DNA from: an uncultured Gammaproteobacteria bacterium
Lineage (GTDB): Bacteria; Patescibacteriota; Patescibacteriia; Magasanikbacterales; JBBTQS01
Direction of reading: 5' to 3'
Assembly (NCBI GenBank): GCA_965230935.1
Contig: OZ246400.1
Span: 246,359 to 310,358 of the forward strand
Length of the DNA: 64,000 nucleotides
Part shown: positions 977 to 61,214 of the stretch, in pieces
Layout of the letters: each line of letters starts with the position of its first letter
How positions within the stretch are numbered: position 1 is the stretch's first letter
Program-made: the position numbers and the translations under genes
Notes under the pieces: generated by a model
The model's database searches: none
Seen by the model: the letters and a program-made list of their open reading frames with translations, nothing else
Told to the model about the DNA's origin: nothing

Positions 977-1005
977 TTGACAAAAGGCTAATTTTTAGGT
1001 ATAGT
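977..1005 (+). promoter_or_regulatory. sigma70-like promoter of GC-rich cassette A
   Basis: TTGACA (977-982), 17-nt spacer, TATAGT (1000-1005). Confidence 0.6.
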
Positions 1006-1049
1006 ATGTGGTCGCTTTCAAAGACGTGCACAGCTTTCGTGCATCAGTT

Positions 1050-1074
1050 CCTGGGGAGTGTAACATTCCCCAGG
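1050..1074 (+). promoter_or_regulatory. 5' leader stem-loop of cassette A
   Basis: perfect 8-bp inverted repeat CCTGGGGA-N9-TCCCCAGG between promoter and RBS. Confidence 0.5.
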
Positions 1075-1111
1075 GATTGGTGTATGAGAGAATCCTTGGA
1101 AGGGGGAAGTA

Positions 1112-1516
1112 ATGAAACAGCGTCAGGAAAACATCGACAGATTGCTCGCCCGAGTGGTGCATGGGATCTACCCGCACCTCCTCATTGTATGGGTCGAGCC
1201 GAGCGAGCTCCTGGCGCACTCTCGTGCCGGATCGTTTCGCCTAGAAAGCAAAGTGCCGCTGCAATATCGCGCACTGACCGACCGCCGTACGTACGCGCTG
1301 CATTTTGCTCGACACTACCAGGTATGTGAGCAAAACACATGGCGCCCGATCAAGCTCTTTGTGACGTGCGAGGCGCGGATCAAAGATGTGAGCGATGCGA
1401 TGGCCAAACATTTGTTGCACTTGGCACAAACGGCCGCACGCACACAGCCCCGGGGCCGCCTACTGCATTTGCACGATGCCGAGCGGCGCTTTCGTCGAAT
1501 GAACACCCAACACTAA
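1112..1516 (+). CDS. GC-rich orphan protein A (134 aa, unknown function)
   Basis: ORF with strong SD GGAAGGGGGAAG 4 nt upstream of ATG; high-GC codon usage (CTG/GCC/CGC) unlike flanking genes; own promoter and terminator. Confidence 0.7.
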   Translation: MKQRQENIDRLLARVVHGIYPHLLIVWVEPSELLAHSRAGSFRLESKVPLQYRALTDRRTYALHFARHYQVCEQNTWRPIKLFVTCEARIKDVSDAMAKHLLHLAQTAARTQPRGRLLHLHDAERRFRRMNTQH

Positions 1517-1533
1517 CCAACAGAAACAACGAA

Positions 1534-1558
1534 CATCTCAGCCTAGCTGAGATGTTTT
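1534..1558 (+). terminator. intrinsic terminator of cassette A
   Basis: 9-bp stem CATCTCAGC-cta-GCTGAGATG followed by TTTT. Confidence 0.75.
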
Positions 1559-1566
1559 CAATTATC

Positions 1567-1595
1567 TTGACAAATACTATTCTTTGACCTATACT
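1567..1595 (+). promoter_or_regulatory. sigma70-like promoter of cassette B
   Basis: TTGACA (1567-1572), 17-nt spacer, TATACT (1590-1595). Confidence 0.6.
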
Positions 1596-1602
1596 CATCT
1601 CT

Positions 1603-1651
1603 TATATGCAGTGACCAGGAGACGAACCATCGCCTCCTTCTACTGCATATA
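1603..1651 (+). promoter_or_regulatory. structured 5' leader of cassette B
   Basis: 10-bp stem TATATGCAGT...ACTGCATATA enclosing a nested AGGAG...CTCCT stem; a second small CCGC/GCGG stem lies before the SD. Confidence 0.5.
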
Positions 1652-1684
1652 GACCCGCACCGCGGGAAAGGAGCACATCGGCCT

Positions 1685-3109
1685 GTGGCTGATACTCAAC
1701 AGGGTCCCCGCGCTAACGCGCACAACCAGCAGGGCTTTACCCTGCTGCAGGCGATCGCCTATCTGATCGCTCCCGCAGGTGTACTCGCACTGGTGGCAGC
1801 AGGAACAGTGTGGATTGACCTGCCGTTTGTCAGCGAACGCTTCCAGTTCAGGAGCAAGTGGGAGAACTGGATGTTGTCTCAAGTGGTGTTCGGCATGACG
1901 ATGTTGGCGGGCTTTGCACGAGTGCGGCTCCGCCGATACTCAATGATCCACATGGCGATCCTCGGACTGATCATCGTTGTGGGCGTGCGCATCGGCATAA
2001 CCGACATCATGAAGTCCGCGTACTTCGCGCCGCTGGACAATCGTGTCGATTGGCACACCCAACACATCTTCCAGGAAGAAATCAAGGCGCGGTATAGCTT
2101 TGGTTCGGCTGAGCGATCAAAGAGGAACTACCCCCGCTTCACCGAGGAGGAGTGCACGTTCGAGCAGGCCAAGATCGATGACCCGCGGTATTACGAGAGC
2201 GCCTACCGCGAACTTGAGCAGGAGCGACAAGGATACGTGGGCGCAATCAAGGAGCTTCAGGAGGATGTGCAGCGTGGCAAACAGTTGCGCCTTCACCTAC
2301 GGTTGGAATCTTTAGTCTTCCCTACCGTTGCCATCGTTCGCTTGGATCCTAACGCCCGCGTGAGCGCGCGTTACCTGGACAATGGCGTGTGCAGACTCCG
2401 TACAGATCAAGAGGTTGATAAGGTGGGGTTCAGCATGAACCTTGACCCAAAGGACGGCTGGGGTTTTCTGCTTGTGCGTATCGTACGTGCGCTGAACAAC
2501 ACACAGAGTCGAACCGGGATCAGGTGTAACATCAACCAGCTACAAGACCCGATTCGAGAAGTTGGTTGTTTCACCGCAATGACTGAGTACCTTGTCTATG
2601 GTGTGCTCGCAAGAAGGATCCTTCCCTATACCGGCCGGGAATTCGGGAACATAAAAGACTCCCTCAACTGGGACTTCCTGATCCAGGCCTGGAAGGCTGC
2701 TGATGTGATCGCCCAGGATGAGGGGCTGCTATGGGCCGTCATGACAAGCTTTGTGCAGCACCAACTCCCTCGGCTTGATGACCTGGGTCAGGGTCGACTG
2801 GCAGGCTTGCTGTGGGTTCTCTGGCACAAGAGCCACCGAAACCTGGCTGCACTTGCCACAAACACGTTCCTTGAGGCTCGCATACCCACCTCGGTTGAGG
2901 CTTGGTTCATGCGCCGATGGGCCGATGCCGGTCGGCAGGCTCCTGGGATGCGGCAGCTCTGGATCTACCGCTACTGGTTGCTTCGGGCCGGCGAGACGTT
3001 CAAGGTTCCGCAAAAGCTGCTGACGCAGTGGAACCAGGAGCTCAAGCCGGCGATCGGAGGCGCGACCACGCTCAAGCTCAAGGGGCTCTACCTGAAGGAC
3101 CTCAAGTAG
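1685..3109 (+). CDS. GC-rich membrane-anchored protein B (474 aa); paralog of protein C
   Basis: GTG start preceded by AAGGAG with slightly long spacing, so start uncertain; 3 predicted N-terminal TM helices; C-terminal EAWFMRRWADAG...LWIYRYW...GGATTLKLKGLY block shared with ORF 3368-4678. Confidence 0.7.
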   Translation: MADTQQGPRANAHNQQGFTLLQAIAYLIAPAGVLALVAAGTVWIDLPFVSERFQFRSKWENWMLSQVVFGMTMLAGFARVRLRRYSMIHMAILGLIIVVGVRIGITDIMKSAYFAPLDNRVDWHTQHIFQEEIKARYSFGSAERSKRNYPRFTEEECTFEQAKIDDPRYYESAYRELEQERQGYVGAIKELQEDVQRGKQLRLHLRLESLVFPTVAIVRLDPNARVSARYLDNGVCRLRTDQEVDKVGFSMNLDPKDGWGFLLVRIVRALNNTQSRTGIRCNINQLQDPIREVGCFTAMTEYLVYGVLARRILPYTGREFGNIKDSLNWDFLIQAWKAADVIAQDEGLLWAVMTSFVQHQLPRLDDLGQGRLAGLLWVLWHKSHRNLAALATNTFLEARIPTSVEAWFMRRWADAGRQAPGMRQLWIYRYWLLRAGETFKVPQKLLTQWNQELKPAIGGATTLKLKGLYLKDLK

Positions 3110-3145
3110 CGCTCGGAGGCTCAACAACACACAAACAACTACACG

Positions 3146-3169
3146 ATCTAGGATTTCCACATCCTAGAT
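3146..3169 (+). terminator. terminator-like hairpin after cassette B
   Basis: perfect 9-bp inverted repeat ATCTAGGAT-ttccac-ATCCTAGAT; weak T tract. Confidence 0.45.
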
Positions 3170-3199
3170 TCTGTAATTTAGCTAATTTTAGACTCATAC

Positions 3200-3228
3200 T
3201 TGACAAATTCCTCTAATTTTGGTATTGT
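3200..3228 (+). promoter_or_regulatory. sigma70-like promoter of cassette C
   Basis: TTGACA (3200-3205), 17-nt spacer, TATTGT (3223-3228); leader of about 135 nt follows. Confidence 0.55.
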
Positions 3229-3367
3229 TAGTCGTCCAAACCTGGACTCAGGATGCGAGTGTAGCAGCTCGTTTCTGTGACAGTTTTGGAACCTGGGCAC
3301 AAGAAGTGTTCATTGTTTTCCATGAGGGAATTGACAATTAGCTCAGACAGCCACGAGGAGGCAACAC

Positions 3368-4678
3368 ATGAGCGATACGACGAGCGGGGATACCCCCGAG
3401 ATGGTTACCATCCCGTGCACCGAGTGCCGTGCGGACGTGAACATCAGCAAAGAGAGAGCAGCACTGGCCGGCATGATCGGTTGCACCGACTGCGGCAAGG
3501 AGTTCATGTACTCCGGGCCCAGCAGCGAAACCGAGGACTCGGGCCCGCTGGAGCTCCCAAGCCAGGCGAAGCGGCTCAACCCGTTCGTCATCATCGGCCT
3601 CTCGACCATCCTGCTGGTGTCTCTGCTCATCTGGCACCAGTCCACGTCGGGCGACGCCGATCAGGAGGCCGAGAGTACGGCCCCGAGCGCGGTGACGGAG
3701 GACACCCCTGCGGCGGCCGAAGAGGACGAGTCGAATACCTGCACCGACGAGGATGGGTGTGGGGGTGGGAAGCGCTGCTTGAACGGCAAGTGCCAGCTGA
3801 TGGTCAACCACGACTGGGAGTCGGTCAAGGCCATCAACGGCCAAATCGCCAACCCGGTTGCCACCGCGACAGCGTCGACGCCGGTCTTCCCCAAGGACAG
3901 CGAAGACGTTCCGGAGTTCGACGGTTCGGCGACCATGTTGTTGGCCGCGGCGCTCTCCAAGCTCAACCACGACGACATGTGGCCGTATTGGTTGCTCAAG
4001 TGGGGCACGTTCGAGAAGGCCGATGATGCCGATGAGGACGCAGATGGGGTTTACATCTCCCTCGTCGATTCGGTTCTCACCGTCAAGTGGCTTCCGGAGA
4101 TGAGCAGTCCGTCGTGGAAGGGGCCGAGCGACACGCCCGAGTTCACCTACGGCGATCACCTGGTCATCGCGCTTCGGAAGATCGCCGAGGACGAGGAGCA
4201 GTTGGCCGCGCTCATGCCGTGGGCGCTGGGCTACGCCAAGGTTCACCTGCGGCCGCAGTTCTACCCCATGTACCAGGAGTGGCTGCGTCGGCTCTGGCAA
4301 GCGTCCAACACCAACCTCGCCCTGGTCAAGCATCAGGTGCAGAACGGCATCGGCGACCCGGAGGATGACGAGTACACCCGTCCGGGCGACGTGCTGTACG
4401 ACAACGACCTGAAGTTGGAGGGGTGGTTCATGCGCCGCTGGAGCAACGCCGGGGGCGGCAAGGCAGGGAGCGATCGGATCCTGCTGTACCGCTACTGGAT
4501 CGTCAAGGTCATGCAGATGCTCGAGGGCGGCTGCAGTCCGGCCGGGGACACACCCGCGTGTTCCGAGGAGTTGCTGGGATGGGCCAGCGCCGTTCAAGGT
4601 TCGTTCCAGAACGGTGAGGGCGCCACCCTGAAGCACAAGGGGACCTACTTCAGCCAGATCGACACGTTCTGGCCCTGA
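3368..4678 (+). CDS. GC-rich protein C (436 aa): N-terminal Cys4 zinc ribbon, single TM, acidic linker, C-terminal domain paralogous to protein B
   Basis: SD GAGGAGG 6 nt upstream of ATG; CTEC...CTDCG zinc-ribbon-like motif then TM helix FVIIGLSTILLVSLLIW; C-terminal EGWFMRRWSNAG...LLYRYW...GEGATLKHKGTY. Confidence 0.75.
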   Translation: MSDTTSGDTPEMVTIPCTECRADVNISKERAALAGMIGCTDCGKEFMYSGPSSETEDSGPLELPSQAKRLNPFVIIGLSTILLVSLLIWHQSTSGDADQEAESTAPSAVTEDTPAAAEEDESNTCTDEDGCGGGKRCLNGKCQLMVNHDWESVKAINGQIANPVATATASTPVFPKDSEDVPEFDGSATMLLAAALSKLNHDDMWPYWLLKWGTFEKADDADEDADGVYISLVDSVLTVKWLPEMSSPSWKGPSDTPEFTYGDHLVIALRKIAEDEEQLAALMPWALGYAKVHLRPQFYPMYQEWLRRLWQASNTNLALVKHQVQNGIGDPEDDEYTRPGDVLYDNDLKLEGWFMRRWSNAGGGKAGSDRILLYRYWIVKVMQMLEGGCSPAGDTPACSEELLGWASAVQGSFQNGEGATLKHKGTYFSQIDTFWP

Positions 4679-4730
4679 GGTCGGCTCCGACGGCTCCTGA
4701 GCACACACCACAACACAACAACTACTTGCA

Positions 4731-4759
4731 GGCCCGCAGCGCGTACAGCGATGCGGGCC
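4731..4759 (+). terminator. intrinsic terminator of cassette C
   Basis: 8-bp stem GGCCCGCA-N13-TGCGGGCC followed by a T-rich tract. Confidence 0.65.
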
Positions 4760-4794
4760 TCAGTAATTTTAGCTAGTAATCGCCTACCATTCTT

Positions 4795-5487
4795 CTACTC
4801 CAACTTATGCTTTTTTTGCACAATTGATTTGGCAGCCTGATAATCCTGAACTTTTTTACTCCAAGGAAACATCTTATACCAAAACTCTGGAAGCCAACTA
4901 CTCATTGTTCCGGAAGAAATAATCTGAAAAAGAATTTCTGGGACCATCACACCATATTTGCTTTGCTCTGCCATACTAAGCCACACATCCCAATCTTGAA
5001 ATCGCTTCAATTCCGGATCAAATCCACAAAAATCTTTTGCACGAATTAACGCACTGGTGTGAATGTAATTGTTCTGTTTTAACTTTTCTAGATCAAATGG
5101 TTGCGGTGAAAATGTTTTCCATCCAAGTTTGAACCCACCATAGCTATACGACGCTTTTGGATTAGCCACCAAAGCAGTATGGAGTTTTTCAAACATTCTA
5201 GAGTTAAGGACAAGGTCAGCATCACAAAACAATACATACTCCCCTGTTGTCCTACTAAATGCAACATTGCGTGCTGTTGGTGCACCTTGATTCTCTTGCG
5301 TAATATAGTGAGTAGCAGCAAAGTCCTGCGCGACTGATTTGATATCTTCAGTGCTTCCATCATTCACAACAATCACCTCAATCGGCTGGTATGTCTGTGC
5401 ACATATAGACTCAAGTGTTCGACGGAGTGCACCCGACCGATTAAATACCGGCACAACAACGCTAATGAGATTAGGAATCATACTCAA
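4795..5487 (-). CDS. family 2 glycosyltransferase
   Basis: VVVPVFNRSG...VIVVNDGSTED GT2 signature; DAD motif. Confidence 0.8.
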   Translation of the reverse strand: MSMIPNLISVVVPVFNRSGALRRTLESICAQTYQPIEVIVVNDGSTEDIKSVAQDFAATHYITQENQGAPTARNVAFSRTTGEYVLFCDADLVLNSRMFEKLHTALVANPKASYSYGGFKLGWKTFSPQPFDLEKLKQNNYIHTSALIRAKDFCGFDPELKRFQDWDVWLSMAEQSKYGVMVPEILFQIISSGTMSSWLPEFWYKMFPWSKKVQDYQAAKSIVQKKHKLE

Positions 5488-8164: not shown

Positions 8165-8596
8165 TCATGGCGCAGCGACAGCTGTTGTGTGAACCTCAAG
8201 ACTCCAGCTCCGCCAGCTCAAGCCAAGACTTGTCAACGTCTCGACCTCCGAGGGTAGATACTGGAACCACTGACACTTCCGGTCGCACTTGACCACACTC
8301 AACAATAGCTGGTATCCACGAACTGTGGCACGCATGTCGCTCATGAGCGGCACGCGAACCCCGAAGTCCGCCTGACACCCGGCCAACGCAGGCAGGCCGG
8401 CATGACCTTCATCGACCAGCATCATGTCGTCGTCCCCCACAACGCCGGCGCCAAAGAGGGCGACGACGAGACTCCATGCTTGCGATCGATCGATCCCGCT
8501 CCCAAAGACTACTCCCCACTTTCCGGCGTGGCGAGATTGGTGCACAAAGGCGCCTTGGGTCATGTCCCCAACAGCGGCCTCTCCTCGTTGCGGCAT
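8165..8596 (-). CDS. GC-rich orphan protein D (143 aa, unknown function)
   Basis: ATG preceded by AGGAGG (8603-8608 on minus strand); GC-rich codons; sits between Wzx gene and the S9 operon terminator. Confidence 0.65.
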   Translation of the reverse strand: MPQRGEAAVGDMTQGAFVHQSRHAGKWGVVFGSGIDRSQAWSLVVALFGAGVVGDDDMMLVDEGHAGLPALAGCQADFGVRVPLMSDMRATVRGYQLLLSVVKCDRKCQWFQYLPSEVETLTSLGLSWRSWSLEVHTTAVAAP

Positions 8597-32601: not shown

Positions 32602-33588
32602 TTAAAATCCGAGTAAACAAATCTCCTCTTCTAAAGAGATCCCATATTGAGTATACACTGTGGTTTTGATCTGCTCAATGAGCTCTTTTACCTGTGCTGC
32701 GGAAGCGCCTTTTTCATTGAGAATAAAGTTGCCATGAGCTTGCGACACTGATGCCTTACCAACATGGGTGCCTTTAAGCCCGCTATGCTCAATAAGCCAT
32801 CCTGCTGGTATTTTTTTGGAGTCTAAAAACTGCTGTGGGATGTCATGACCCTTTAAATCGATAATTTCTTGATCGGTTATCTCTTTGTTTTTAAAAATAC
32901 ACCCGGTTGAAGCATACCCTTTTGGTTGGGTTTCCATACGATACTGCAGATATTCTTGCAGCTTTTTCATACTCTCTTGCTTGTCACCATGGACCAACGT
33001 AAGAGTCACTGACAATACAATCCCGCCGTTCTCTTTAAACATACTGTGGCGATACCCAAATGCACATTCAGCGTTGCCTAAGTCCACTATCTCGCCATCA
33101 ATAAGTGCCGTCACTGAGGTAACTGCATCTTTCATCTCACCTGTTGATGCACCGGAATTTCCCCGCACGGCTCCGCCAATTGTTCCCGGGACTCCAACTC
33201 CCCATTCAAATCCAGTGAGTCCTGCAGCAACACTTTTTTGTGCGATCTCAACCGTCTTGACTCCTGCTTGTGCTATAACCACGGTATCGGCAATCGTGAG
33301 TTCAGTGAGTTTAAGCTGAATCACTACACCATCAAATCCTTCATCAGCCACCAAAAGATTGCTTCCTCCACCCAATACAAAGGTTTGGATATCATATTCT
33401 GCTGCAAGCGCGAGCACGTCTTGGAGTTGTGCAATTGACGTTACCGTAACTAGATATCGTGCCGGCCCACCAATTTTAAAAGAGGTCAGTCGACTCATGG
33501 AAACATTGCGCTTCACTGATTCCGCCACCTCTTGAAGTTGCGAATACATTACATCATTGCTCATACTATTTGACCAAGTTCCTTGCAA
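32602..33588 (-). CDS. murB: UDP-N-acetylenolpyruvoylglucosamine reductase
   Basis: FAD-binding FKIGGPARYLV motif; exact start uncertain. Confidence 0.85.
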   Translation of the reverse strand: MQGTWSNSMSNDVMYSQLQEVAESVKRNVSMSRLTSFKIGGPARYLVTVTSIAQLQDVLALAAEYDIQTFVLGGGSNLLVADEGFDGVVIQLKLTELTIADTVVIAQAGVKTVEIAQKSVAAGLTGFEWGVGVPGTIGGAVRGNSGASTGEMKDAVTSVTALIDGEIVDLGNAECAFGYRHSMFKENGGIVLSVTLTLVHGDKQESMKKLQEYLQYRMETQPKGYASTGCIFKNKEITDQEIIDLKGHDIPQQFLDSKKIPAGWLIEHSGLKGTHVGKASVSQAHGNFILNEKGASAAQVKELIEQIKTTVYTQYGISLEEEICLLGF

Positions 33589-34966
33589 TCAAATCTATAG
33601 TTCCTGCACCCATAACTAACACAACATCGTCGGGCTCTACAATATCGCGCAAACGCTGCTCTGTTGCCTCAAGCGAACCAGTATATTCCACTGTGCATTC
33701 CGGATGTGCTTTGGCAATTGCATCAGTGAGTGCGCGTGAGTTTATATTTTGATATTGTGCCTCTTCTCTTCCGGCGACGTCATAGACATCACTCATCAAT
33801 ACATGATCTGCATGATGAAAACTATTCACAAAATCGTCAAATAACTCTTTGGTGCGCGCATGTTGATGGGGCTGATATGCCACAATGATACGATGATTTT
33901 CATACCATTCGCGTGCTGCATGGATAGTCGCATCAATAGCAGTTGGATGATGTGCATAATCAGAAACTACAGTTGCCATATTATACTTACCCACCACCTC
34001 AAATCGACGCCAAATTCCGGTAAAACCCTCAAGCGAATCACGAATACTTGGCAATGGAACCTGCATCTCTTGCGCCACTACAATTGCTGCTAATGCATTA
34101 CTTACATTAAAACGCCCAGGAATCCGCACACTCATTTTCGTATCCTCATATCCCTGTGTGGTTGGCAGTGTTGCTGTAAAATAAGACACTCCATTGTGGA
34201 GCACCACATTGCTGGCCATAATATCAGCCTCTTCGGCAATACCATAAAGCAACGTTTTACCGCCCCAGTTTAAGCGAGCACGGACTGAGCGATCATCATA
34301 ATTTTTAACGTACACTCCGGATTTTGGTAAACGATTCACAAACTCTTGCATTTGCACGAACACATCATCCACACTTTGATAGTAATCAGGATGATCATAT
34401 TCAACGTTGGTGACAACCGCAATATCCGGACTCAGTAATCGCATGTTTCCCTGATACTCACATGCTTCCACCACCAAAATATTACTCTCTCCCATATCGA
34501 GATTGCCATGGGTGAACGCAGTGCATCGTGAGCCAACAAATACGGTTGGTGCAAAACCAGCATTCTTTAAAATCAATCCAATCATTGCGGTCACGGTAGA
34601 CTTACCATGCGTACCACTAATCGCAATAGTTTTCTTTTTCTCACTTAGTAACGCAAGAAATCCCGGGTAATTCAGTGTTGGAATCTTGCGCTCATATGCC
34701 AAAGTCAACTCCTCATTGGATGACGGCACTGCAGGTGAGTAGATCACCAGATCAACTTGTTTTGGTAAATTTCGTGCGTCATTCCCAACAAATATGGTAA
34801 TACCCAAATCGCGCAACTCGTCCAATGTCTCGGACTCTACCGCATCAGAGCCCAGCACAGTAATACCTGACAAATGCAAATATTTAGCGGCAGCACTGAC
34901 ACCAATGCCTCCGATTCCGACACAGTACGCGGTCTTAATATTGTCGAGTGTAGGTGTTTTTGTCAT
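33566..34966 (-). CDS. murC: UDP-N-acetylmuramate--L-alanine ligase
   Basis: GIGGIGVSAAA..., Mur ligase GTHGKSTVT P-loop. Confidence 0.9.
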   Translation of the reverse strand: MTKTPTLDNIKTAYCVGIGGIGVSAAAKYLHLSGITVLGSDAVESETLDELRDLGITIFVGNDARNLPKQVDLVIYSPAVPSSNEELTLAYERKIPTLNYPGFLALLSEKKKTIAISGTHGKSTVTAMIGLILKNAGFAPTVFVGSRCTAFTHGNLDMGESNILVVEACEYQGNMRLLSPDIAVVTNVEYDHPDYYQSVDDVFVQMQEFVNRLPKSGVYVKNYDDRSVRARLNWGGKTLLYGIAEEADIMASNVVLHNGVSYFTATLPTTQGYEDTKMSVRIPGRFNVSNALAAIVVAQEMQVPLPSIRDSLEGFTGIWRRFEVVGKYNMATVVSDYAHHPTAIDATIHAAREWYENHRIIVAYQPHQHARTKELFDDFVNSFHHADHVLMSDVYDVAGREEAQYQNINSRALTDAIAKAHPECTVEYTGSLEATEQRLRDIVEPDDVVLVMGAGTIDLIARNLVK

Positions 34967-44866: not shown

Positions 44867-46345
44867 ATGAGCAAGAAATTGACCTTACCACAATTTATTG
44901 AAGAGGTTTTGCAAACGCTTCGTGATGCCAATCACCAAGCGTATGTTGTTGGTGGTGCAATTCGTGACTTGCTCATGGGCAACACTACGACTGATTGGGA
45001 CTTGGCCACTGACGCAACACCGGAGCAAATTCAAGCATTATTTGCAGATCATGTATATGAAAATGAATTTGGAACCGTGACACTCAAATGCGTGTCAGAA
45101 AATTCCCCAAACGCTGTTGTACCAGTAGGGCAGAAAGTGGAAATCACTCCTTTTCGTAGTGAGCATGGGTATGCAGACAAACGTCGTCCAGACACAGTAC
45201 AATTTGGTGTATCGCTCAAAGAAGATTTGTCACGACGCGACTTTACTATCAATGCCATTGCTTATGATGGTACCGCTCTTGTCGATCCTTTCAACGGACG
45301 AGATGATATTGCACAAAAGATTATTCGCACGGTTGGCTCACCTGATGAACGTCTTACAGAAGATGCGTTGCGCATGTTACGCGCTATTCGTTTTGCCACC
45401 ACACTTGGATTTACCATTGATCCGCAGACACAGGAGTCGATTAAAAAACACAGCAAGGCGATCACACAAATCTCTGCAGAACGTATTCGGGATGAGCTGA
45501 TCAAAATTGTTGAGGCACACACAAAGCCATCGACCGGCTTTCGACTCATGCATGATACTGGCTTACTTGCGTACATCATGCCAGAGCTTGAAGTTGGTAT
45601 TGGTGTTGGACAAAACAAACACCATATTTATACGGTGTTTGAACATAATTTGCTTTCACTCGACTTTGCAGCTGAGTATGAATATAGCACTGCAGTGCGT
45701 TTGGCGGCACTACTTCATGACATTGGAAAACCGGCAACCAAAGAAGGCGAAGGCCATGACTGCACGTTTTACAATCACGCCCAAGTTGGTGCCAAACAAG
45801 CACGTGATATTTTGATCCGACTTAAATTACCAAAAGCACTTGGTAAAAAAATCGTAACCTTGGTGCGCAATCATATGTTTTTCTATGATGTAGATGCCGT
45901 TACTGATGCTGCGATTCGCCGGTTAGTCAAAAAAGTTGGTCCAGAGAATATTCAAGATCTACTCAAAGTACGTATTGCCGAGCGTAAAGGTTCGGGTGTT
46001 CCTAAGGCACGACCGTACCGATTGCGTCACTTGGAGTATATGATTGAAAAAGTTGCTCGCGATCCGATTTCAGTGAAGATGCTTAAGCTCAATGGGGACA
46101 TCATGATCAATGAATTTGACATGAAGCCGGGTCCGCGTATGGGTTGGATTTTGAATGCCTTACTTGAAGACGTGCTGGATGACCCTACGCGCAACACTCG
46201 TGAGTATCTTGAAGCACGTATGAAGGAATTGGATGCCATGAGTGATGATCAACTCAGTGCATTAGCACAAGCTGGAAAAGAAGCAGCGGCACAAAAAGAA
46301 GCGCAAGCGCTGGGTGAGATCAAGAAAAAATTTCACGTTAAATAG
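44867..46345 (+). CDS. cca: CCA-adding tRNA nucleotidyltransferase with HD domain
   Basis: VVGGAIRDLLMG...DWDLAT polymerase beta head motifs; HD domain LLHDIGKP. Confidence 0.85.
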   Translation: MSKKLTLPQFIEEVLQTLRDANHQAYVVGGAIRDLLMGNTTTDWDLATDATPEQIQALFADHVYENEFGTVTLKCVSENSPNAVVPVGQKVEITPFRSEHGYADKRRPDTVQFGVSLKEDLSRRDFTINAIAYDGTALVDPFNGRDDIAQKIIRTVGSPDERLTEDALRMLRAIRFATTLGFTIDPQTQESIKKHSKAITQISAERIRDELIKIVEAHTKPSTGFRLMHDTGLLAYIMPELEVGIGVGQNKHHIYTVFEHNLLSLDFAAEYEYSTAVRLAALLHDIGKPATKEGEGHDCTFYNHAQVGAKQARDILIRLKLPKALGKKIVTLVRNHMFFYDVDAVTDAAIRRLVKKVGPENIQDLLKVRIAERKGSGVPKARPYRLRHLEYMIEKVARDPISVKMLKLNGDIMINEFDMKPGPRMGWILNALLEDVLDDPTRNTREYLEARMKELDAMSDDQLSALAQAGKEAAAQKEAQALGEIKKKFHVK

Positions 46346-46361
46346 TGCGGTGCAAAAAGAA

Positions 46362-46394
46362 GAAGCGCTCCATCAGGGCGCTTTCTTGTTGTTT
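46362..46394 (+). terminator. intrinsic terminator of cca
   Basis: GAAGCGC-loop-GCGCTTT stem followed by CTTGTTGTTT. Confidence 0.55.
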
Positions 46395-46452
46395 GATGTA
46401 GTATTTTGTTGACGTCTAACTTCCGCTGAGGCGCGTCGCGATCCCCTTCTTC

Positions 46453-47667
46453 CTAAGCAGACGGGCGTTTCAGCCAGGTCCAAGGAACGGTAAATCGGCG
46501 ACTCTCACGCCAGATATACCCTTCCTCTTGTGCTCGGGAGATATATGCACGAATCGAATCAGTTGAAATTCCACCACCAAATGATTCTGGGGTCAGATGA
46601 TGATGATAGAAGTCACGGCCGCCGGTGGAATCCCAAAGATGAACCAGTCGGTCAGACCAAGGCATCTCGAGCCGGGTTACCTGTGGTGGAGATGGGGCCT
46701 TCAACCAGTAGCACGCATTCGGATGGTTCTCAGCGCACCGGATGTACCCTTCCTTGCGTGCACGGCCCAGGTACGATTTAAGAGTGCCTTTAGAAACGCC
46801 ACCACCGAACGATTCGGCGCTGATCTCATCTCGAGAAAAGTCACTTCCACCGGTAGACTTCCAAAAGTAAAAAAGCCGCAATTCCCAAGGAATTTTTTGC
46901 TTATTCACTCTACTGCGATGTCGATTTGGTTCTTCACCACGCACACTACTATCAGCAGTTGCACCAACGTTCGTAGGCCTAGATGAAGGTTTCTGACCGT
47001 ACGGGTGTTCGCCTATCAAGGCAAAACCAGAGACCGAGATGCTATACCAATCACCCTCAAGACAAGCGCCGGTCAAGCGGTCTTCGTCGCAGCGAGACAA
47101 CAACATGTGATCCAACAGCATATCCATTACATCACCGATCTGCTCAAAGCCCAGTTTACCGAGCTTATCATCAGTAGCGGTTCTACGAATTGCCTGCCGA
47201 ACCAAGTCTTCCGGGAACGTCGGAATCTCGTTTAGATGGTATCCTGTCTGCTCGAAGATGTGGTGCAACACACGACGTAGTGCTTCATCAATCTGCAGCG
47301 AAGTACTCACATCGCCATCATAGCAAACACCAGGACGGTACGGTTCCCCTTCCCGGAACCACCCAACGTGACTCCTCCCGATCATGTCAAAAGCCGATGC
47401 CGTCATCTGAAGACGACGGTTCCTTCTTCCCTTGTACCCCACACTACCACGTGTGAGCAAGAAACGCTCTTCCATCACCGCAACCAACTGGGCACGACTC
47501 TTCACACCTAACTGTCTTTGCAGTTGTGTAGGCAGCGCTTCGCGAATCCATTTCTTAAGCTGCGCTTGTGTGAATGTGCGACGAACGCCTCTCCGGTATC
47601 CTGTTTTGCGAAAAAGCGCTTTGACCACTTCACGAAGAAGGTCGTACTGCGCCTGATTTCTCTGCAT
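46453..47667 (-). CDS. GC-rich protein F (about 405 aa) with internal tandem roughly 65-aa repeat
   Basis: start placed at MQRNQAQ (ATG 47665-47667) because of the strong SD AGGGGGGAG; repeats WELRLFYFWKSTGGSDF...ESFGGGVS...EGYI and WSDRLVHLWDSTGGRDF...ESFGGGIS...EGYI. Confidence 0.7.
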   Translation of the reverse strand: MQRNQAQYDLLREVVKALFRKTGYRRGVRRTFTQAQLKKWIREALPTQLQRQLGVKSRAQLVAVMEERFLLTRGSVGYKGRRNRRLQMTASAFDMIGRSHVGWFREGEPYRPGVCYDGDVSTSLQIDEALRRVLHHIFEQTGYHLNEIPTFPEDLVRQAIRRTATDDKLGKLGFEQIGDVMDMLLDHMLLSRCDEDRLTGACLEGDWYSISVSGFALIGEHPYGQKPSSRPTNVGATADSSVRGEEPNRHRSRVNKQKIPWELRLFYFWKSTGGSDFSRDEISAESFGGGVSKGTLKSYLGRARKEGYIRCAENHPNACYWLKAPSPPQVTRLEMPWSDRLVHLWDSTGGRDFYHHHLTPESFGGGISTDSIRAYISRAQEEGYIWRESRRFTVPWTWLKRPSA

Positions 47668-47809
47668 TTTGATCTCCCCCCTAAGGGTCTTGTGTTGATG
47701 AAATTGACCAATTAGCTGAGTATAGTTAATCATTTTATATTATTTTGTCAAGAATAAATTAAGACAAATATAAAATTTACATATCCTTTTACTCCGTGTA
47801 CACTAAATT

Positions 47810-49132
47810 GTGAAACACATCAGTAACAGTATGAAAAAACTCCTAAAAAAACTCTTCCCCGAATCAGTTTGGCTCCTCTACCATCGCCTGCAAGCAACGT
47901 TGGCAAGTATTTGGTATCGCAATCCATCCAAATCACTCGTGATTGTTGGCGTAACCGGCACAAAAGGAAAATCCACAACATGCAACTTTATCTGGTCAGT
48001 CTTGCAAACCACGGGACACAAAACCGCGTTGACCGGCACGGCCAATTTTCGTATTGGTGGTCATGAGGAGCTTAATCCGTATCACCTTTCCATGCCAGGC
48101 CCATGGATTATTCAAAAGTTTTTGCGCAGGGCAGTCAAAGCAGGCTGCTCGCACGCCGTGGTTGAAGTAACGTCTGAGGGAATTAAACAACACCGTCACC
48201 GTGGCATTGACTATGATGTTGCTGTGTTTACTAATCTTACTCCAGAACATCTTCCGTCTCATGGTGGGAGTTTTGAAAACTATCGTGCTGCAAAAGGCCA
48301 GTTGTTTGCAACGCTTGCACGATCGTCCAAAAAATCAACGATAAAAGTACTCAACAATGACAGTGATCAAGTCGACTTTTTTGCTCAATTTCACTCAAGC
48401 AAAACCATTACCTATGGTATGCACCACCAAGCAGATTTGATGGCAACGGATATTGCGCATAGTGCTCATGGTGTACAATTTGTAATCGGTTCTGGACAGT
48501 ATAGTATACAATTTCCTGGCTATTTTAATGTAAGTAATGCATTAGCAGCGGTAGCAGTTGCCAGAGCGCTTGGTATCGGTGTGGATCATATTCGTGCTGG
48601 GATTGCGCATCTTGAAGGCGTGCCCGGACGAATGGAGCGCATTGACGCTGGGCAGAACTTTTCCGTATGGGTTGATTATGCTCATGAGAAAGAATCAATG
48701 GGTGGTTTGCTCGAAGCGCTTCATGCGATTCGAAAAGAAATGAGCCAAAATATTATTGTACTGCTTGGTGCTGAGGGCGGCGGGCGTGATAAAACCAAAC
48801 GCCCGATCATGGGACACCAAGTTGGTGAGATGGCTGACTATGTCGTGATAAGCAATGTTGATCCCTATGAAGATGATCCGCTCCCGATTATTGAAGACAT
48901 TGCGAAAGCAGCTGAAGAAAAAGGGAAAGTTCGAGATAAAAATCTATTTTGTATTGAAGATCGTCGTGCTGGGATTGCCAAAGCGCTATCACTTGCAAAC
49001 CCTGGCGATCTCGTGGCGATCACCGGCAAAGGAGCCGAACAATCAATCGTGATCGGTGGGGTCAAAAGTGATTGGGACGATCGAGATGTGGTTCGTGAAG
49101 AATTACAAAAGATGTCATCATACATGCTTTAA
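47810..49132 (+). CDS. Mur ligase family protein (MurE-like)
   Basis: VIVGVTGTKGKSTT P-loop; Mur ligase middle and C-terminal domains. Confidence 0.75.
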   Translation: MKHISNSMKKLLKKLFPESVWLLYHRLQATLASIWYRNPSKSLVIVGVTGTKGKSTTCNFIWSVLQTTGHKTALTGTANFRIGGHEELNPYHLSMPGPWIIQKFLRRAVKAGCSHAVVEVTSEGIKQHRHRGIDYDVAVFTNLTPEHLPSHGGSFENYRAAKGQLFATLARSSKKSTIKVLNNDSDQVDFFAQFHSSKTITYGMHHQADLMATDIAHSAHGVQFVIGSGQYSIQFPGYFNVSNALAAVAVARALGIGVDHIRAGIAHLEGVPGRMERIDAGQNFSVWVDYAHEKESMGGLLEALHAIRKEMSQNIIVLLGAEGGGRDKTKRPIMGHQVGEMADYVVISNVDPYEDDPLPIIEDIAKAAEEKGKVRDKNLFCIEDRRAGIAKALSLANPGDLVAITGKGAEQSIVIGGVKSDWDDRDVVREELQKMSSYML

Positions 49133-49196: not shown

Positions 49197-49502
49197 CTAT
49201 TTCTTGCCACCAAAATCCTCCCAATGCTTTTTCAAATATTCAGTGAGGAACTCCTTTACATCACCGGCAATGTGTTTGTGCTGCGCATATTCATCAACCA
49301 ACTTCTTCACCACACGATTGTAGGCTGCTTTGGTTGGTTTTTTCAGATCTTTCATGCGCTCTTGCGCCAGGTTCAACAATTCCTGAGCCTTTTTCTCAAG
49401 CTTTTTCTTGGTTTTCTTCCCTTGCGCAGTTTGTAAATACTTTGATGCAAACACACCAACAGCAAGACCTAACAACAGGCCCTTGCCAAACTTCTTTTTC
49501 AT
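49197..49502 (-). CDS. YtxH-like small membrane-anchored coiled-coil protein
   Basis: 101 aa; N-terminal TM GLLLGLAVGVFASKYL then a Lys/Glu-rich helix. Confidence 0.55.
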   Translation of the reverse strand: MKKKFGKGLLLGLAVGVFASKYLQTAQGKKTKKKLEKKAQELLNLAQERMKDLKKPTKAAYNRVVKKLVDEYAQHKHIAGDVKEFLTEYLKKHWEDFGGKK

Positions 49503-53343: not shown

Positions 53344-54021
53344 GTGCACACCAATCCGATCCTAACCGCTGCCTTGCTGATCGTGGCATTGACGTTGGCC
53401 GGGTGCGGCGGCCCGGAGCAGCTCGTCAACACCGGGCAGACGCATTTGATCCGCACCGGGACGGAGGACGCCGAACATCATCCCGCCTGCATCGACCTGC
53501 CGTTGCAAGTCAAGCAGGGTGAGCACATCACGCTGAAGCACGTCCCCGAGACGTCACAACAGCACGCGGTGTGCTATGTCGGCGATTGGGATGAGTTGTT
53601 TGGACGAAGCACCAGTGTGCTGATTAATCCTGCGCGGTATTGGCCGACCATCATTGACCTGAACCTGTGGTGGGACAAGGTGATGAAGGGTCAGAGCAAG
53701 CCGCAGCAGGGCTCTACCGAGAACCTCACCTACTGGTACGTCTTCGACAAGGGAGCCGTGTACAACGGCAGCATTCTCACGATCTGTACCAAGGACGTTC
53801 GAGAAAACCTCAAAAAAGGCGGCCACGCGTCGGTAGGATGGGGAGTCCAAATGACAACTGGAATGTCGGAGTTTTTCCTGCATGTTGTGAAGACGCTCAT
53901 CGAAAGTGGAACACTCGGATCTGATGCCACCATCGACCCGCTGATGCCGATCCCAGCGGCACTGGATGGCCTTGGTAAGGATCCGCGATTCTGCTCGCAG
54001 GTCTTGATCAAGCACAACTAA
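53344..54021 (+). CDS. GC-rich predicted lipoprotein G (225 aa, unknown function)
   Basis: GTG start after SD AAGGAG; signal peptide with lipobox LTLAGC; GC-rich codons. Confidence 0.7.
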   Translation: MHTNPILTAALLIVALTLAGCGGPEQLVNTGQTHLIRTGTEDAEHHPACIDLPLQVKQGEHITLKHVPETSQQHAVCYVGDWDELFGRSTSVLINPARYWPTIIDLNLWWDKVMKGQSKPQQGSTENLTYWYVFDKGAVYNGSILTICTKDVRENLKKGGHASVGWGVQMTTGMSEFFLHVVKTLIESGTLGSDATIDPLMPIPAALDGLGKDPRFCSQVLIKHN

Positions 54022-57810: not shown

Positions 57811-58410
57811 ATGCCCACCTTTGAGGACTTGAAGCGCTGTCTTGTAATGGGAATGCGCGAGATTAAGCGACGTCATGAAGACGAGATGTATGAGCTGAGT
57901 GAGAAGCTGAACGACTTTTTGTACAGCATCCACGTCGCTCAATGGCAAAAGCATGATGACGCCGCCCCACTTCCCGAGGACTTCATCACCAAGACGCCCC
58001 CCGGAACACAGCTCACCTCCAAGGCGAGTGGCGTGTTTACCCGGATGCGGGCGTTTTTGGCGGAAAAAGACCTGGTGGCTGTCTACGACATCTATGTGAC
58101 ACCGGACAGTGACGGTGGCGCCACCTACACGCTCACGCGCAACGGCTCGCGACTCGAGCAAAAAAGGATCGCTGAGCTGGGCGACCCGGCGATCTTCAGT
58201 GAGATTGCCCTGGTCTGGCTGCCAAGGCAAAAACTCCACTCGAAAATCGGGCTTGACCTTGAGATCAAGGCGATCCGCGAAACCGCCATTGCGCAAGGCA
58301 TCTCGCCGGATGATACGGAGGCGTTCCAGGAGGCCACCGGCAAACACCTCGCTCTGGCAGCGGTAGGCCACCTGCTCAGAAGTGGAAAACTGCGAGACTC
58401 ATCGGACTAA
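57811..58410 (+). CDS. GC-rich orphan protein H (199 aa, unknown function)
   Basis: SD GGAGGG 3 nt upstream of ATG; GC-rich; own terminator. Confidence 0.7.
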   Translation: MPTFEDLKRCLVMGMREIKRRHEDEMYELSEKLNDFLYSIHVAQWQKHDDAAPLPEDFITKTPPGTQLTSKASGVFTRMRAFLAEKDLVAVYDIYVTPDSDGGATYTLTRNGSRLEQKRIAELGDPAIFSEIALVWLPRQKLHSKIGLDLEIKAIRETAIAQGISPDDTEAFQEATGKHLALAAVGHLLRSGKLRDSSD

Positions 58411-60413: not shown

Positions 60414-61214
60414 ATGAAGCACCCGAGACAGTTGAGCAGGTTCGCTCTTTGGCTGAACATTGCCAGGCAGGCGTACCAGCGTTGGAATCACCGCCGTGCG
60501 GTGGTTCCAGCCCAGATGGGCTACCCGGACTCGTACCAGGAGCCCAAGGCCATCGAGGATCAGCTCCACATCCTGCGCCAGTACTTCCCCGAGCTGGGCG
60601 TTGCCCGGTTGGCGGACGCGCGCCAGGTGCTCCCTGAGGGCGCCGAGGGGTGGTTTGCCATCCCGAAGTGGCAGGCGCTGGGCGACACCTACTGTGAGGC
60701 GTTGCACCGCGTGTTTGCGGCGCTGCGCCAGAGCCGCTATGTGGAGGATCTGCTCAACCAGTTTGGGCCGGTCACGGATCTGCAGCTGCAGACCACCGAG
60801 CACACCCGCGACGCGATGAACTACATCGCCGCGGAGCAGGACCGCCGGACGTTCGAGGGGAACATCCTCATGATCCCCTGCCAGTTCGGCGCGAACCACG
60901 CGGGCGAGTCGGATCTTCGCGTGCGCGCCACGTTGCGCCACGACGAGTTCGCGCTCTCCACCTTCGCGGTGGCGTGCATGGTGTTGACCCACCCGGATCG
61001 GTTTGTCAGCGATGGCACCCTGGGTGTGCACTGCACCGGTGACGGCTTCAGCCAGATCACGCAGGACCACCGCGAGTTCCACGGCTTCTGCGACACGCCC
61101 TGCTTCTTCTTCGACCGCGGGAGCGACGGGCACGACAAGCTGTGGCTCAGCAGCGACCTGGTGCGGATCCCGCGATACCACACCGGGGCGGCCACCGGGT
61201 TCATAGTCGAGTAA
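60414..61214 (+). CDS. GC-rich orphan protein I (266 aa, unknown function)
   Basis: SD GGAGG 5 nt upstream of ATG; Cys/His-rich C-terminal half (HCTGDGF...HGFCDTPCFFFD). Confidence 0.7.
   Translation: MKHPRQLSRFALWLNIARQAYQRWNHRRAVVPAQMGYPDSYQEPKAIEDQLHILRQYFPELGVARLADARQVLPEGAEGWFAIPKWQALGDTYCEALHRVFAALRQSRYVEDLLNQFGPVTDLQLQTTEHTRDAMNYIAAEQDRRTFEGNILMIPCQFGANHAGESDLRVRATLRHDEFALSTFAVACMVLTHPDRFVSDGTLGVHCTGDGFSQITQDHREFHGFCDTPCFFFDRGSDGHDKLWLSSDLVRIPRYHTGAATGFIVE

Follow-up and report, generated by a model that had tools for sequence, protein, structure and literature searches.

A lineage-specific Patescibacteria protein with two internal duplications and a predicted tandem pair of winged-helix domains

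Between cca and murE on contig OZ246400.1 (assembly GCA_965230935.1) of an uncultured bacterium of the Patescibacteria (candidate phyla radiation, CPR) lies a single gene, placed on the strand opposite to both neighbors. It codes for a basic protein of 404 amino acids (aa) with an overall isoelectric point (pI) of 9.6. We analyzed this gene within a stretch of 64,000 nucleotides (positions 246,359 to 310,358 of the contig), hereafter the window, to which all coordinates refer unless another locus is named (Table 1). We consider the gene to be real, protein-coding and lineage-specific. At its base composition, a frame of 404 open codons would arise by chance with P ~3e-9, the locus is 100% identical across three assemblies (two sequencing runs, ERR2281800 and ERR2281801, of one project, PRJEB17505), and it is carried on a contig of 931 kb. 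The run and project accessions turned up nothing in the literature. The GC content of the gene is 51.5%, with a GC content at third codon positions (GC3) of 0.49 compared with 0.28-0.45 in the neighboring housekeeping genes of the window. The first-pass annotation had described the gene as GC-rich, which holds to a moderate degree, but the gene is well below the other islands of the window in this respect.

The strong Shine-Dalgarno (SD) sequence reported for the minus-strand open reading frame (ORF) is indeed present, and counted from the ATG that it precedes the protein has 404 rather than 405 residues. Public gene calls are split between the 426-aa version from the ATG at 47733 (NCBI/ENA) and the 404-aa version from the ATG at 47667 (Logan). 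Only the start at 47667 has an SD; the one at 47733 lies inside promoter-like AT-rich DNA and is probably not the real start of the gene. The gene and murE are divergent and share an AT-rich intergenic spacer of 142 bp. The promoter-like elements found there are consensus matches only, as the promoter type of Patescibacteria is not established. The TTGACA noted earlier in an AT-rich spacer can be seen at 47751-47746 (spacer GC 32-36%), but the consensus scan revealed no properly spaced -10 element for it. The same region contains an inverted repeat with perfect arms of 10+10 nt, a plausible but weak candidate operator; shuffled sequences equaled or exceeded the 10-nt arm in 6 of 300 cases. At the other end of the gene, the hairpin between it and the convergent cca resembles a bidirectional terminator common to the two genes.

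Table 1. Coordinates of the gene, its signals and the modules of its product in the window
Feature	Position	Strand	Description	Basis
Protein-coding gene	46453..47667	minus	404 aa; coordinates include the stop codon 46453-46455	ORF list and sequence
SD-like sequence AGGGGGGAG	47674..47682	minus	6-nt spacer to ATG 47667-47665	sequence reading
Upstream in-frame ATG	47731..47733	minus	gives ORF 46453-47733, 426 aa	NCBI/ENA start
Promoter-like TTGTCT-17-AATAAT	47739..47767	minus	TTGTCT at 47767; overlaps TTGACA	consensus scan
Inverted repeat ATTTTATATT / AATATAAAAT	47732..47776	.	arms 25 nt apart; in the divergent intergenic region shared with murE; overlaps promoter-like elements	
GC-rich hairpin with T-runs on both strands	46362..46384	.	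between the gene and convergent cca	
N1 module, aa 5-107	47347..47655	minus	segment aa 1-115: pI 11.6, 25 K/R in 115 aa	
N2 module, aa 124-224	46996..47298	minus	N1 paralogue; segment aa 116-230 acidic, pI 4.8	
Linker, aa 225-257 (~33 aa)	46897..46995	minus	few hydrophobic residues; basic patch RHRSRVNKQK; predicted unstructured	
C1, predicted winged-helix domain, aa 258-327	46687..46896	minus		AlphaFold2 model, Foldseek, sub-threshold Pfam
C2, predicted winged-helix domain, aa 334-404	46456..46668	minus	C1 paralogue	sub-threshold PaaX and MCM_C winged-helix matches

The neighboring MurE has many relatives among Patescibacteria, the closest being 72%, 68-69% and 62% identical. In three related lineages the gene order is kept: PBP2 (minus), cca (plus), the interval, murE (plus), DoxX (minus), GT4 (minus), DUF2304, GT2, epimerase, S8 peptidase and Bac_transf. 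In contrast, the contents of the cca-murE interval (46346-47809 in the window; 2518-6000 in L004, 2771-6000 in L006 and 3028-6000 in L008) differ by lineage and are mostly orphans. Two lineages have an orphan of 281 or 246 aa together with a VTT/PAP2/LssY_C membrane protein, the third has four orphans, and the window has the 404-aa protein alone. According to tblastn, phmmer and hmmsearch, the interval orphans of the relatives are unrelated to it. Since the flanking order is kept while the contents differ, we class the gene as accessory and its location as hypervariable. The term 'cassette', under which it was first described, is a label with no structure behind it. Boundary repeats, att-like sites and mobile-element genes were not found at the borders of the gene, nor were direct or inverted flanking repeats common to it and the other islands, or iterons or tandem DNA repeats within 46200-48000. 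Genes of mobile elements, such as those for an integrase or a partition ATPase, are absent from the interval, the neighbors are housekeeping genes, and nothing characteristic of an integron-type cassette was detected. In a more distant Saccharibacteria metagenome-assembled genome (MurE 46% identical), an unrelated ORF of 318 aa lies just upstream of murE (L003, 4936-5892, plus strand). On the far side of murE, a small YtxH-like gene (49197-49502, minus strand) separates it from the DoxX-like gene in the window and is absent from that place in L006 and L008.

As judged from its sequence, the protein is built by two separate internal duplications, which give the layout N1-N2, linker, C1-C2. C1 and C2 are 44% identical over 70 columns with one gap and 31 invariant positions. 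Their Smith-Waterman score of 164 compares with 24 +/- 4.3 for 500 shuffles (maximum 55; z = 32), and a profile of the two copies matches exactly two sites in the protein. All the motifs quoted for this repeat in the first-pass annotation are present. However, the unit is 70-71 aa instead of about 65 aa, and it recurs with a period of 76 aa (228 nt), which is also visible as a DNA repeat; a Pro-rich connector of 6 residues joins the copies. The nucleotide identity of the copies is only 57%, 17 of the 31 identical residues are specified by different codons, and nonsynonymous divergence (dN 0.51) is lower than synonymous divergence (dS 1.35; dN/dS ~0.37). Together, these values point to an old duplication conserved at the protein level, a further argument for a genuine coding sequence. 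The other duplication, that of N1 and N2, had been missed. These modules are 21% identical over about 100 columns and score 63 in the Smith-Waterman comparison (24 +/- 3.9 for shuffles, none of 500 as high; z = 10). They have in common the landmarks LR.V...F..TGY, TF, IR, LG, LL.R and S.F..IG. The N1-N2 duplication is the older one (dN 0.97; dS 3.6, saturated).

We modeled the C-terminal unit with AlphaFold2 (AF2), giving it C1 and, as the sole alignment partner, C2. The resulting model of C1 has a predicted local distance difference test score (pLDDT) of 91.1 and a predicted template modeling score (pTM) of 0.78, and the five models range from 88.7 to 91.1 in pLDDT. It consists of helix 1 (H1, residues 4-15 of the unit), a strand (20-21), H2 (27-30), H3 (36-48) and two further strands (52-54 and 61-64). 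The corresponding order of elements in C1 is H1 WELRLFYFWKST, strand b1, H2 AESF, the GGG turn, H3 KGTLKSYLGRARK, b2 IRC and b3 ACYW. The winged-helix topology (H1-b1-H2-turn-H3-b2-wing-b3) is thus seen here in a domain that is compact and about 70 aa long. The conserved motifs of the repeat map onto it as follows: W(E/S)(L/D)RL..(F/L)W forms helix 1, STGG.DF the loop and strand 1, ESFGGG helix 2 and the turn, and S...(L/I)..Y..RA..EGYI the recognition helix and the beginning of the wing (its first strand), which is closed by W-L-K-x-P-S. Basic residues are found on H3 and the wings of the C units, and R45, R53 and K66 of the repeat are conserved. In the full-length single-sequence AF2 model (pLDDT 37), a helix and a hairpin still appear at matching positions in C1 and C2.

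Structural comparison points the same way. Among the best 50 Foldseek matches of C1 in the PDB, most are winged-helix domains or regulators of the DNA-binding type that contain one. They include Zur, cullin WHB, Zalpha, MarR-type proteins, BigR, CymR and IdeR, as well as LexA, Cdc6, Vps25, MecI and the pNOB8 centromere-binding protein, with probabilities mostly of 0.8-1.0, TM scores of about 0.5-0.69 and E-values of only 1e-2 to 8e-2. Winged-helix matches were also obtained among predicted viral structures (BFVD). At the sequence level, there are sub-threshold Pfam matches to HTH_24 (E 0.007), Sigma70_r4_2, PaaX and the MCM_C winged helix, each of them located in the ESFGGG...EGYI part (H2-H3) of one or the other copy. 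On the strength of the model and these matches, we assign C1 and C2 to canonical winged helix-turn-helix (wHTH) domains at the superfamily level, and to no curated sequence family. Structure prediction of a single repeat unit, proposed in the first-pass annotation, thus yielded a fold for a repeat that had not been recognized there. The known family to which it can be assigned is a fold superfamily and not a sequence family.

The N-terminal half is different. Its basic, helix-rich region had been likened to a DNA-binding or winged-helix module, and this was not confirmed. The region corresponds to N1/N2, for which no match was found in Pfam or among PDB sequences. In the low-confidence full-length model, three helices are alike in N1 and N2. 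There is a residue pattern reminiscent of a helix-turn-helix (LQRQLGVKSRAQLVAVMEE / LGKLGFEQIGDVMDMLLDH), though it is a pattern only. Similarly, LQRQLG-VKSRAQLVAVMEE / LGKLG-FEQIGDVMDMLLDH might be read as a helix-turn-helix with a basic wing (GYKGRRNRRLQ) after it.

The protein is a singleton in all the sequence collections searched. A word-indexed search of about 5.8 billion protein clusters with the full protein retrieved only the protein itself, and the C1/C2 profile produced no candidates in the same set. An exhaustive phmmer search of 1.84 billion cluster representatives returned the protein itself and two WD40 proteins. The latter matches rest on the chance similarity of a WD motif ('VWDSTSG' versus 'LWDSTGG'). 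A WD40 repeat, with its blades of about 40 aa and GH...WD signature, agrees neither with the period of 76 aa nor with the confident alpha/beta winged-helix model. Degenerate-pattern scans found nothing in viral contigs or in metagenome contigs, the latter scanned for the whole protein as well as for the repeat profile, and tblastn detected nothing similar in 50,697 phage and 72,556 plasmid records. PHROGs, NCBIfam and PADLOC gave no significant match. Whether queried with the whole protein or with the C or N profile, PDB sequences yielded chance matches only (phytochrome B, CyaA, RNR and epoxide hydrolase).

In view of the predicted fold, the tandem arrangement and the basic charge, the reading that we prefer, with a probability of roughly 0.55, is a lineage-specific nucleic-acid-binding protein, likely a DNA-binding regulator, in which C1 and C2 form a single-chain pseudo-dimer. 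The first-pass annotation had considered duplicated ligand- or nucleic-acid-binding modules plausible; duplicated they are, and nucleic-acid binding is plausible, but the kind of module, a winged helix, is not new. The product would be a cytoplasmic basic protein expressed from a gene with its own ribosome-binding site, terminator-like site and promoter-like elements. The C1-C2 pair would do, through covalent linkage, what regulators of the MarR, ArsR and Fur types achieve as homodimers. Its two recognition helices (S-K/T-x-x-L/I-K/R-x-Y-L/I-x-R-A) could enter successive major grooves of DNA, with the two basic wings (conserved R53 and K66) resting on the backbone or in neighboring minor grooves. 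The very basic N1 may add affinity through non-specific or second-site nucleic-acid contacts, whereas the acidic N2 has probably diverged and lost binding, and might have a regulatory or protein-contact role. As the product of an accessory gene, the protein would most likely be a DNA-binding regulator or a nucleoid-associated protein, possibly acting on the imperfect palindrome of its own promoter region, which is common to the divergent murE.

Several observations weigh against this reading. The C1 model rests on an alignment of two rows, the Foldseek E-values are about 1e-2 to 1e-1 with none below 1e-3, and no family reaches the Pfam gathering score (HTH_24 16.4 versus 21.9 bits, Sigma70_r4_2 13.8 versus 25.7 bits). 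For N1/N2, the full-length model has a pLDDT of only 37, and hhalign found no relation between the N and C profiles (probability 0.2%). No orthologues were found in the collections searched, so that internal paralogues are the sole evolutionary evidence. The candidate operator is weak, as the shuffles indicate. Finally, winged helices are also known to mediate contacts between proteins, and the highest TM scores among the PDB matches belong to cullin WHB domains.

This last point leads to the rival that survives best, namely that the winged helices are protein-protein or scaffold modules of the type seen in cullin WHB, ESCRT-II Vps25/Vps22, ScpB and MukE, and that the protein is an adaptor. 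Here the cullin WHB matches (TM 0.66-0.69) are joined by the tandem winged-helix protein Vps25, and the recognition helix of C2 is poor in basic residues. However, the protein is strongly basic, particularly in the N1 segment, basic positions of the repeat are conserved, the sequence-level hints all lead toward DNA-binding families, and no partner gene is co-encoded with this solitary gene. We therefore regard an adaptor as unlikely. A more far-reaching variant of the nucleic-acid-binding interpretation is somewhat less probable still. It would make the protein the founder of a previously unseen single-chain family with four nucleic-acid-binding modules, N1/N2 not being winged helices, that arose by two rounds of duplication in a hypervariable CPR locus and maybe silences or regulates the other GC-rich foreign islands of the genome.

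It might also be argued that the ORF is a non-functional or decaying piece of foreign DNA, recently acquired or spurious and with no present role. A singleton without homologues in the collections searched, sitting in a hypervariable interval, could be understood in this way, but the frame of 404 codons is intact and is accompanied by a strong SD and a terminator-like site, the repeat is conserved at the protein level, and AF2 predicts a confident globular fold, all of which makes decay improbable. Slightly more remote is a replication initiator or a partition (centromere-binding) protein encoded by a mobile element that has integrated or degraded, such as the Rep_3 proteins RepA/RepE with their WH1-WH2 domains, TubR or the pNOB8 type. 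Tandem winged helices, a basic pI, atypical GC3 and a variable interval would suit such a protein, and structural matches were obtained to TubR, to a phage replisome organizer and to the centromere-binding protein of pNOB8. Yet the absence of nearby iterons, tandem DNA repeats and mobile-element genes speaks against it, as do the lack of a Rep_3 or any other Pfam, PHROG or PADLOC match and of anything similar in the phage and plasmid records. Least probable of all is a binder of RNA or of unusual DNA structures, SelB-like on an RNA hairpin or Zalpha-like on left-handed Z-DNA/Z-RNA: Zalpha domains (4wcg, 4kmf; poxvirus E3L-type) are among the structural matches, the Zalpha chimera 7c0j is a weak sequence match (E 0.25), a Tyr in H3 and a Trp in the final strand of the wing are retained in both C1 and C2, and Zalpha domains also occur in tandem, but ordinary regulators score just as well and, in our alignment with ADAR1 Zalpha, the Tyr is two residues out of register and the signature Asn is missing. 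Each of these four rivals is without positive support.

The window contains five further islands (1000-5000, 8165-8596, 53344-54021, 57811-58410 and 60414-61214) with GC3 of 0.66-0.89, compared with 0.28-0.45 for the host. Their ORFs have no Pfam match, and the gene described here is much less GC-rich than they are. Genome GC is 51-52% in L006 and L008 (MurE ~68% identical) and 42-44% in the genome of the window and in L004, and such a strong shift within the lineage weakens GC as evidence that this gene is foreign. The genes for the epimerase and the S8 peptidase sit only about 30 bp apart in related genomes but are separated in the window by island 53344-54021, which is therefore an insertion. 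Boundary repeats common to the islands were not found. Two GC-rich orphan ORFs, 1685-3109 and 3368-4678 (both on the plus strand), have a common C-terminal motif, E(A/G)WFMRRW..AG......(I/L)YRYW, corresponding to an 80% identical DNA repeat of 35 nt (2897-2931 and 4418-4452), and from this similarity they look like paralogues. Long ORFs are present on both strands in 3338-4711. In addition, a 49-nt stretch at 34074-34122, within the opposite-strand ORF 33566-34966, is 84% complementary to 48513-48561 in murE. Should that ORF encode a second Mur ligase, the complementarity would be due to a conserved coding motif rather than to a mobile repeat.

The very small genomes of Patescibacteria contain many orphan genes and few regulators that can be recognized. 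Our analysis turns one of these orphans into a tandem winged-helix protein, as predicted, and provides a candidate DNA-binding protein for a hypervariable locus. It also illustrates that an internal repeat can be used as its own alignment to arrive at a confident fold, a cheap route to the annotation of singleton genes. The general picture is unchanged unless the binding target of the protein or its N-terminal module proves unusual.

Tandem winged-helix proteins are well known and include Rep_3 initiators, ScpB, SelB, Zalpha-Zbeta proteins and the AlkZ/YcaQ glycosylases, to none of which the protein shows a sequence match; MarR, ArsR and Fur-type regulators act as homodimers. The homodimeric regulators (MarR, ArsR/SmtB BigR, Rrf2 CymR, Fur/Zur and BlaI/MecI) have the same domain topology as the C units and are among the best structural matches. 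They too bring two winged-helix units together, and the weak HTH_24 match spans the recognition helix of our protein. Unlike them, it carries both units in one polypeptide, lacks the dimerization helix and the ligand or metal site of those families, matches no family profile at threshold, and has an extra duplicated N-terminal module. In Rep_3 initiators (RepA/RepE/pi), WH1 and WH2 lie in one basic chain and each reads part of the DNA site; two tandem winged helices in one basic chain are likewise found here. Membership in Rep_3 is contradicted by the missing Pfam match, by the absence of iterons or origin-like DNA nearby and by the chromosomal position between housekeeping genes. The Zalpha/Zbeta proteins (ADAR1, ZBP1, PKZ, poxvirus E3L and CyHV-3 ORF112) resemble the protein in having winged-helix units of about 65-75 aa in tandem and are among its structural matches, but the protein is bacterial and no more similar to them than to generic regulators.

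The bacterial AlkZ/YcaQ glycosylases (Pfam HTH_42) likewise have about 400 aa, tandem wHTH motifs and a positively charged DNA-binding surface, with three wHTH motifs scaffolding a C-shaped protein (PMC7367128). We found no match to PF06224 (HTH_42) at E <= 10 in Pfam, nor one among PDB sequences, and for this reason we rejected a place in this family; the Q48-L49-Q50 triplet is too short to be meaningful. The two kinds of protein are alike in combining about 400 aa with tandem wHTH motifs, whereas the protein described here has 2+2 duplicated modules, a layout that is unusual but involves no new principle.

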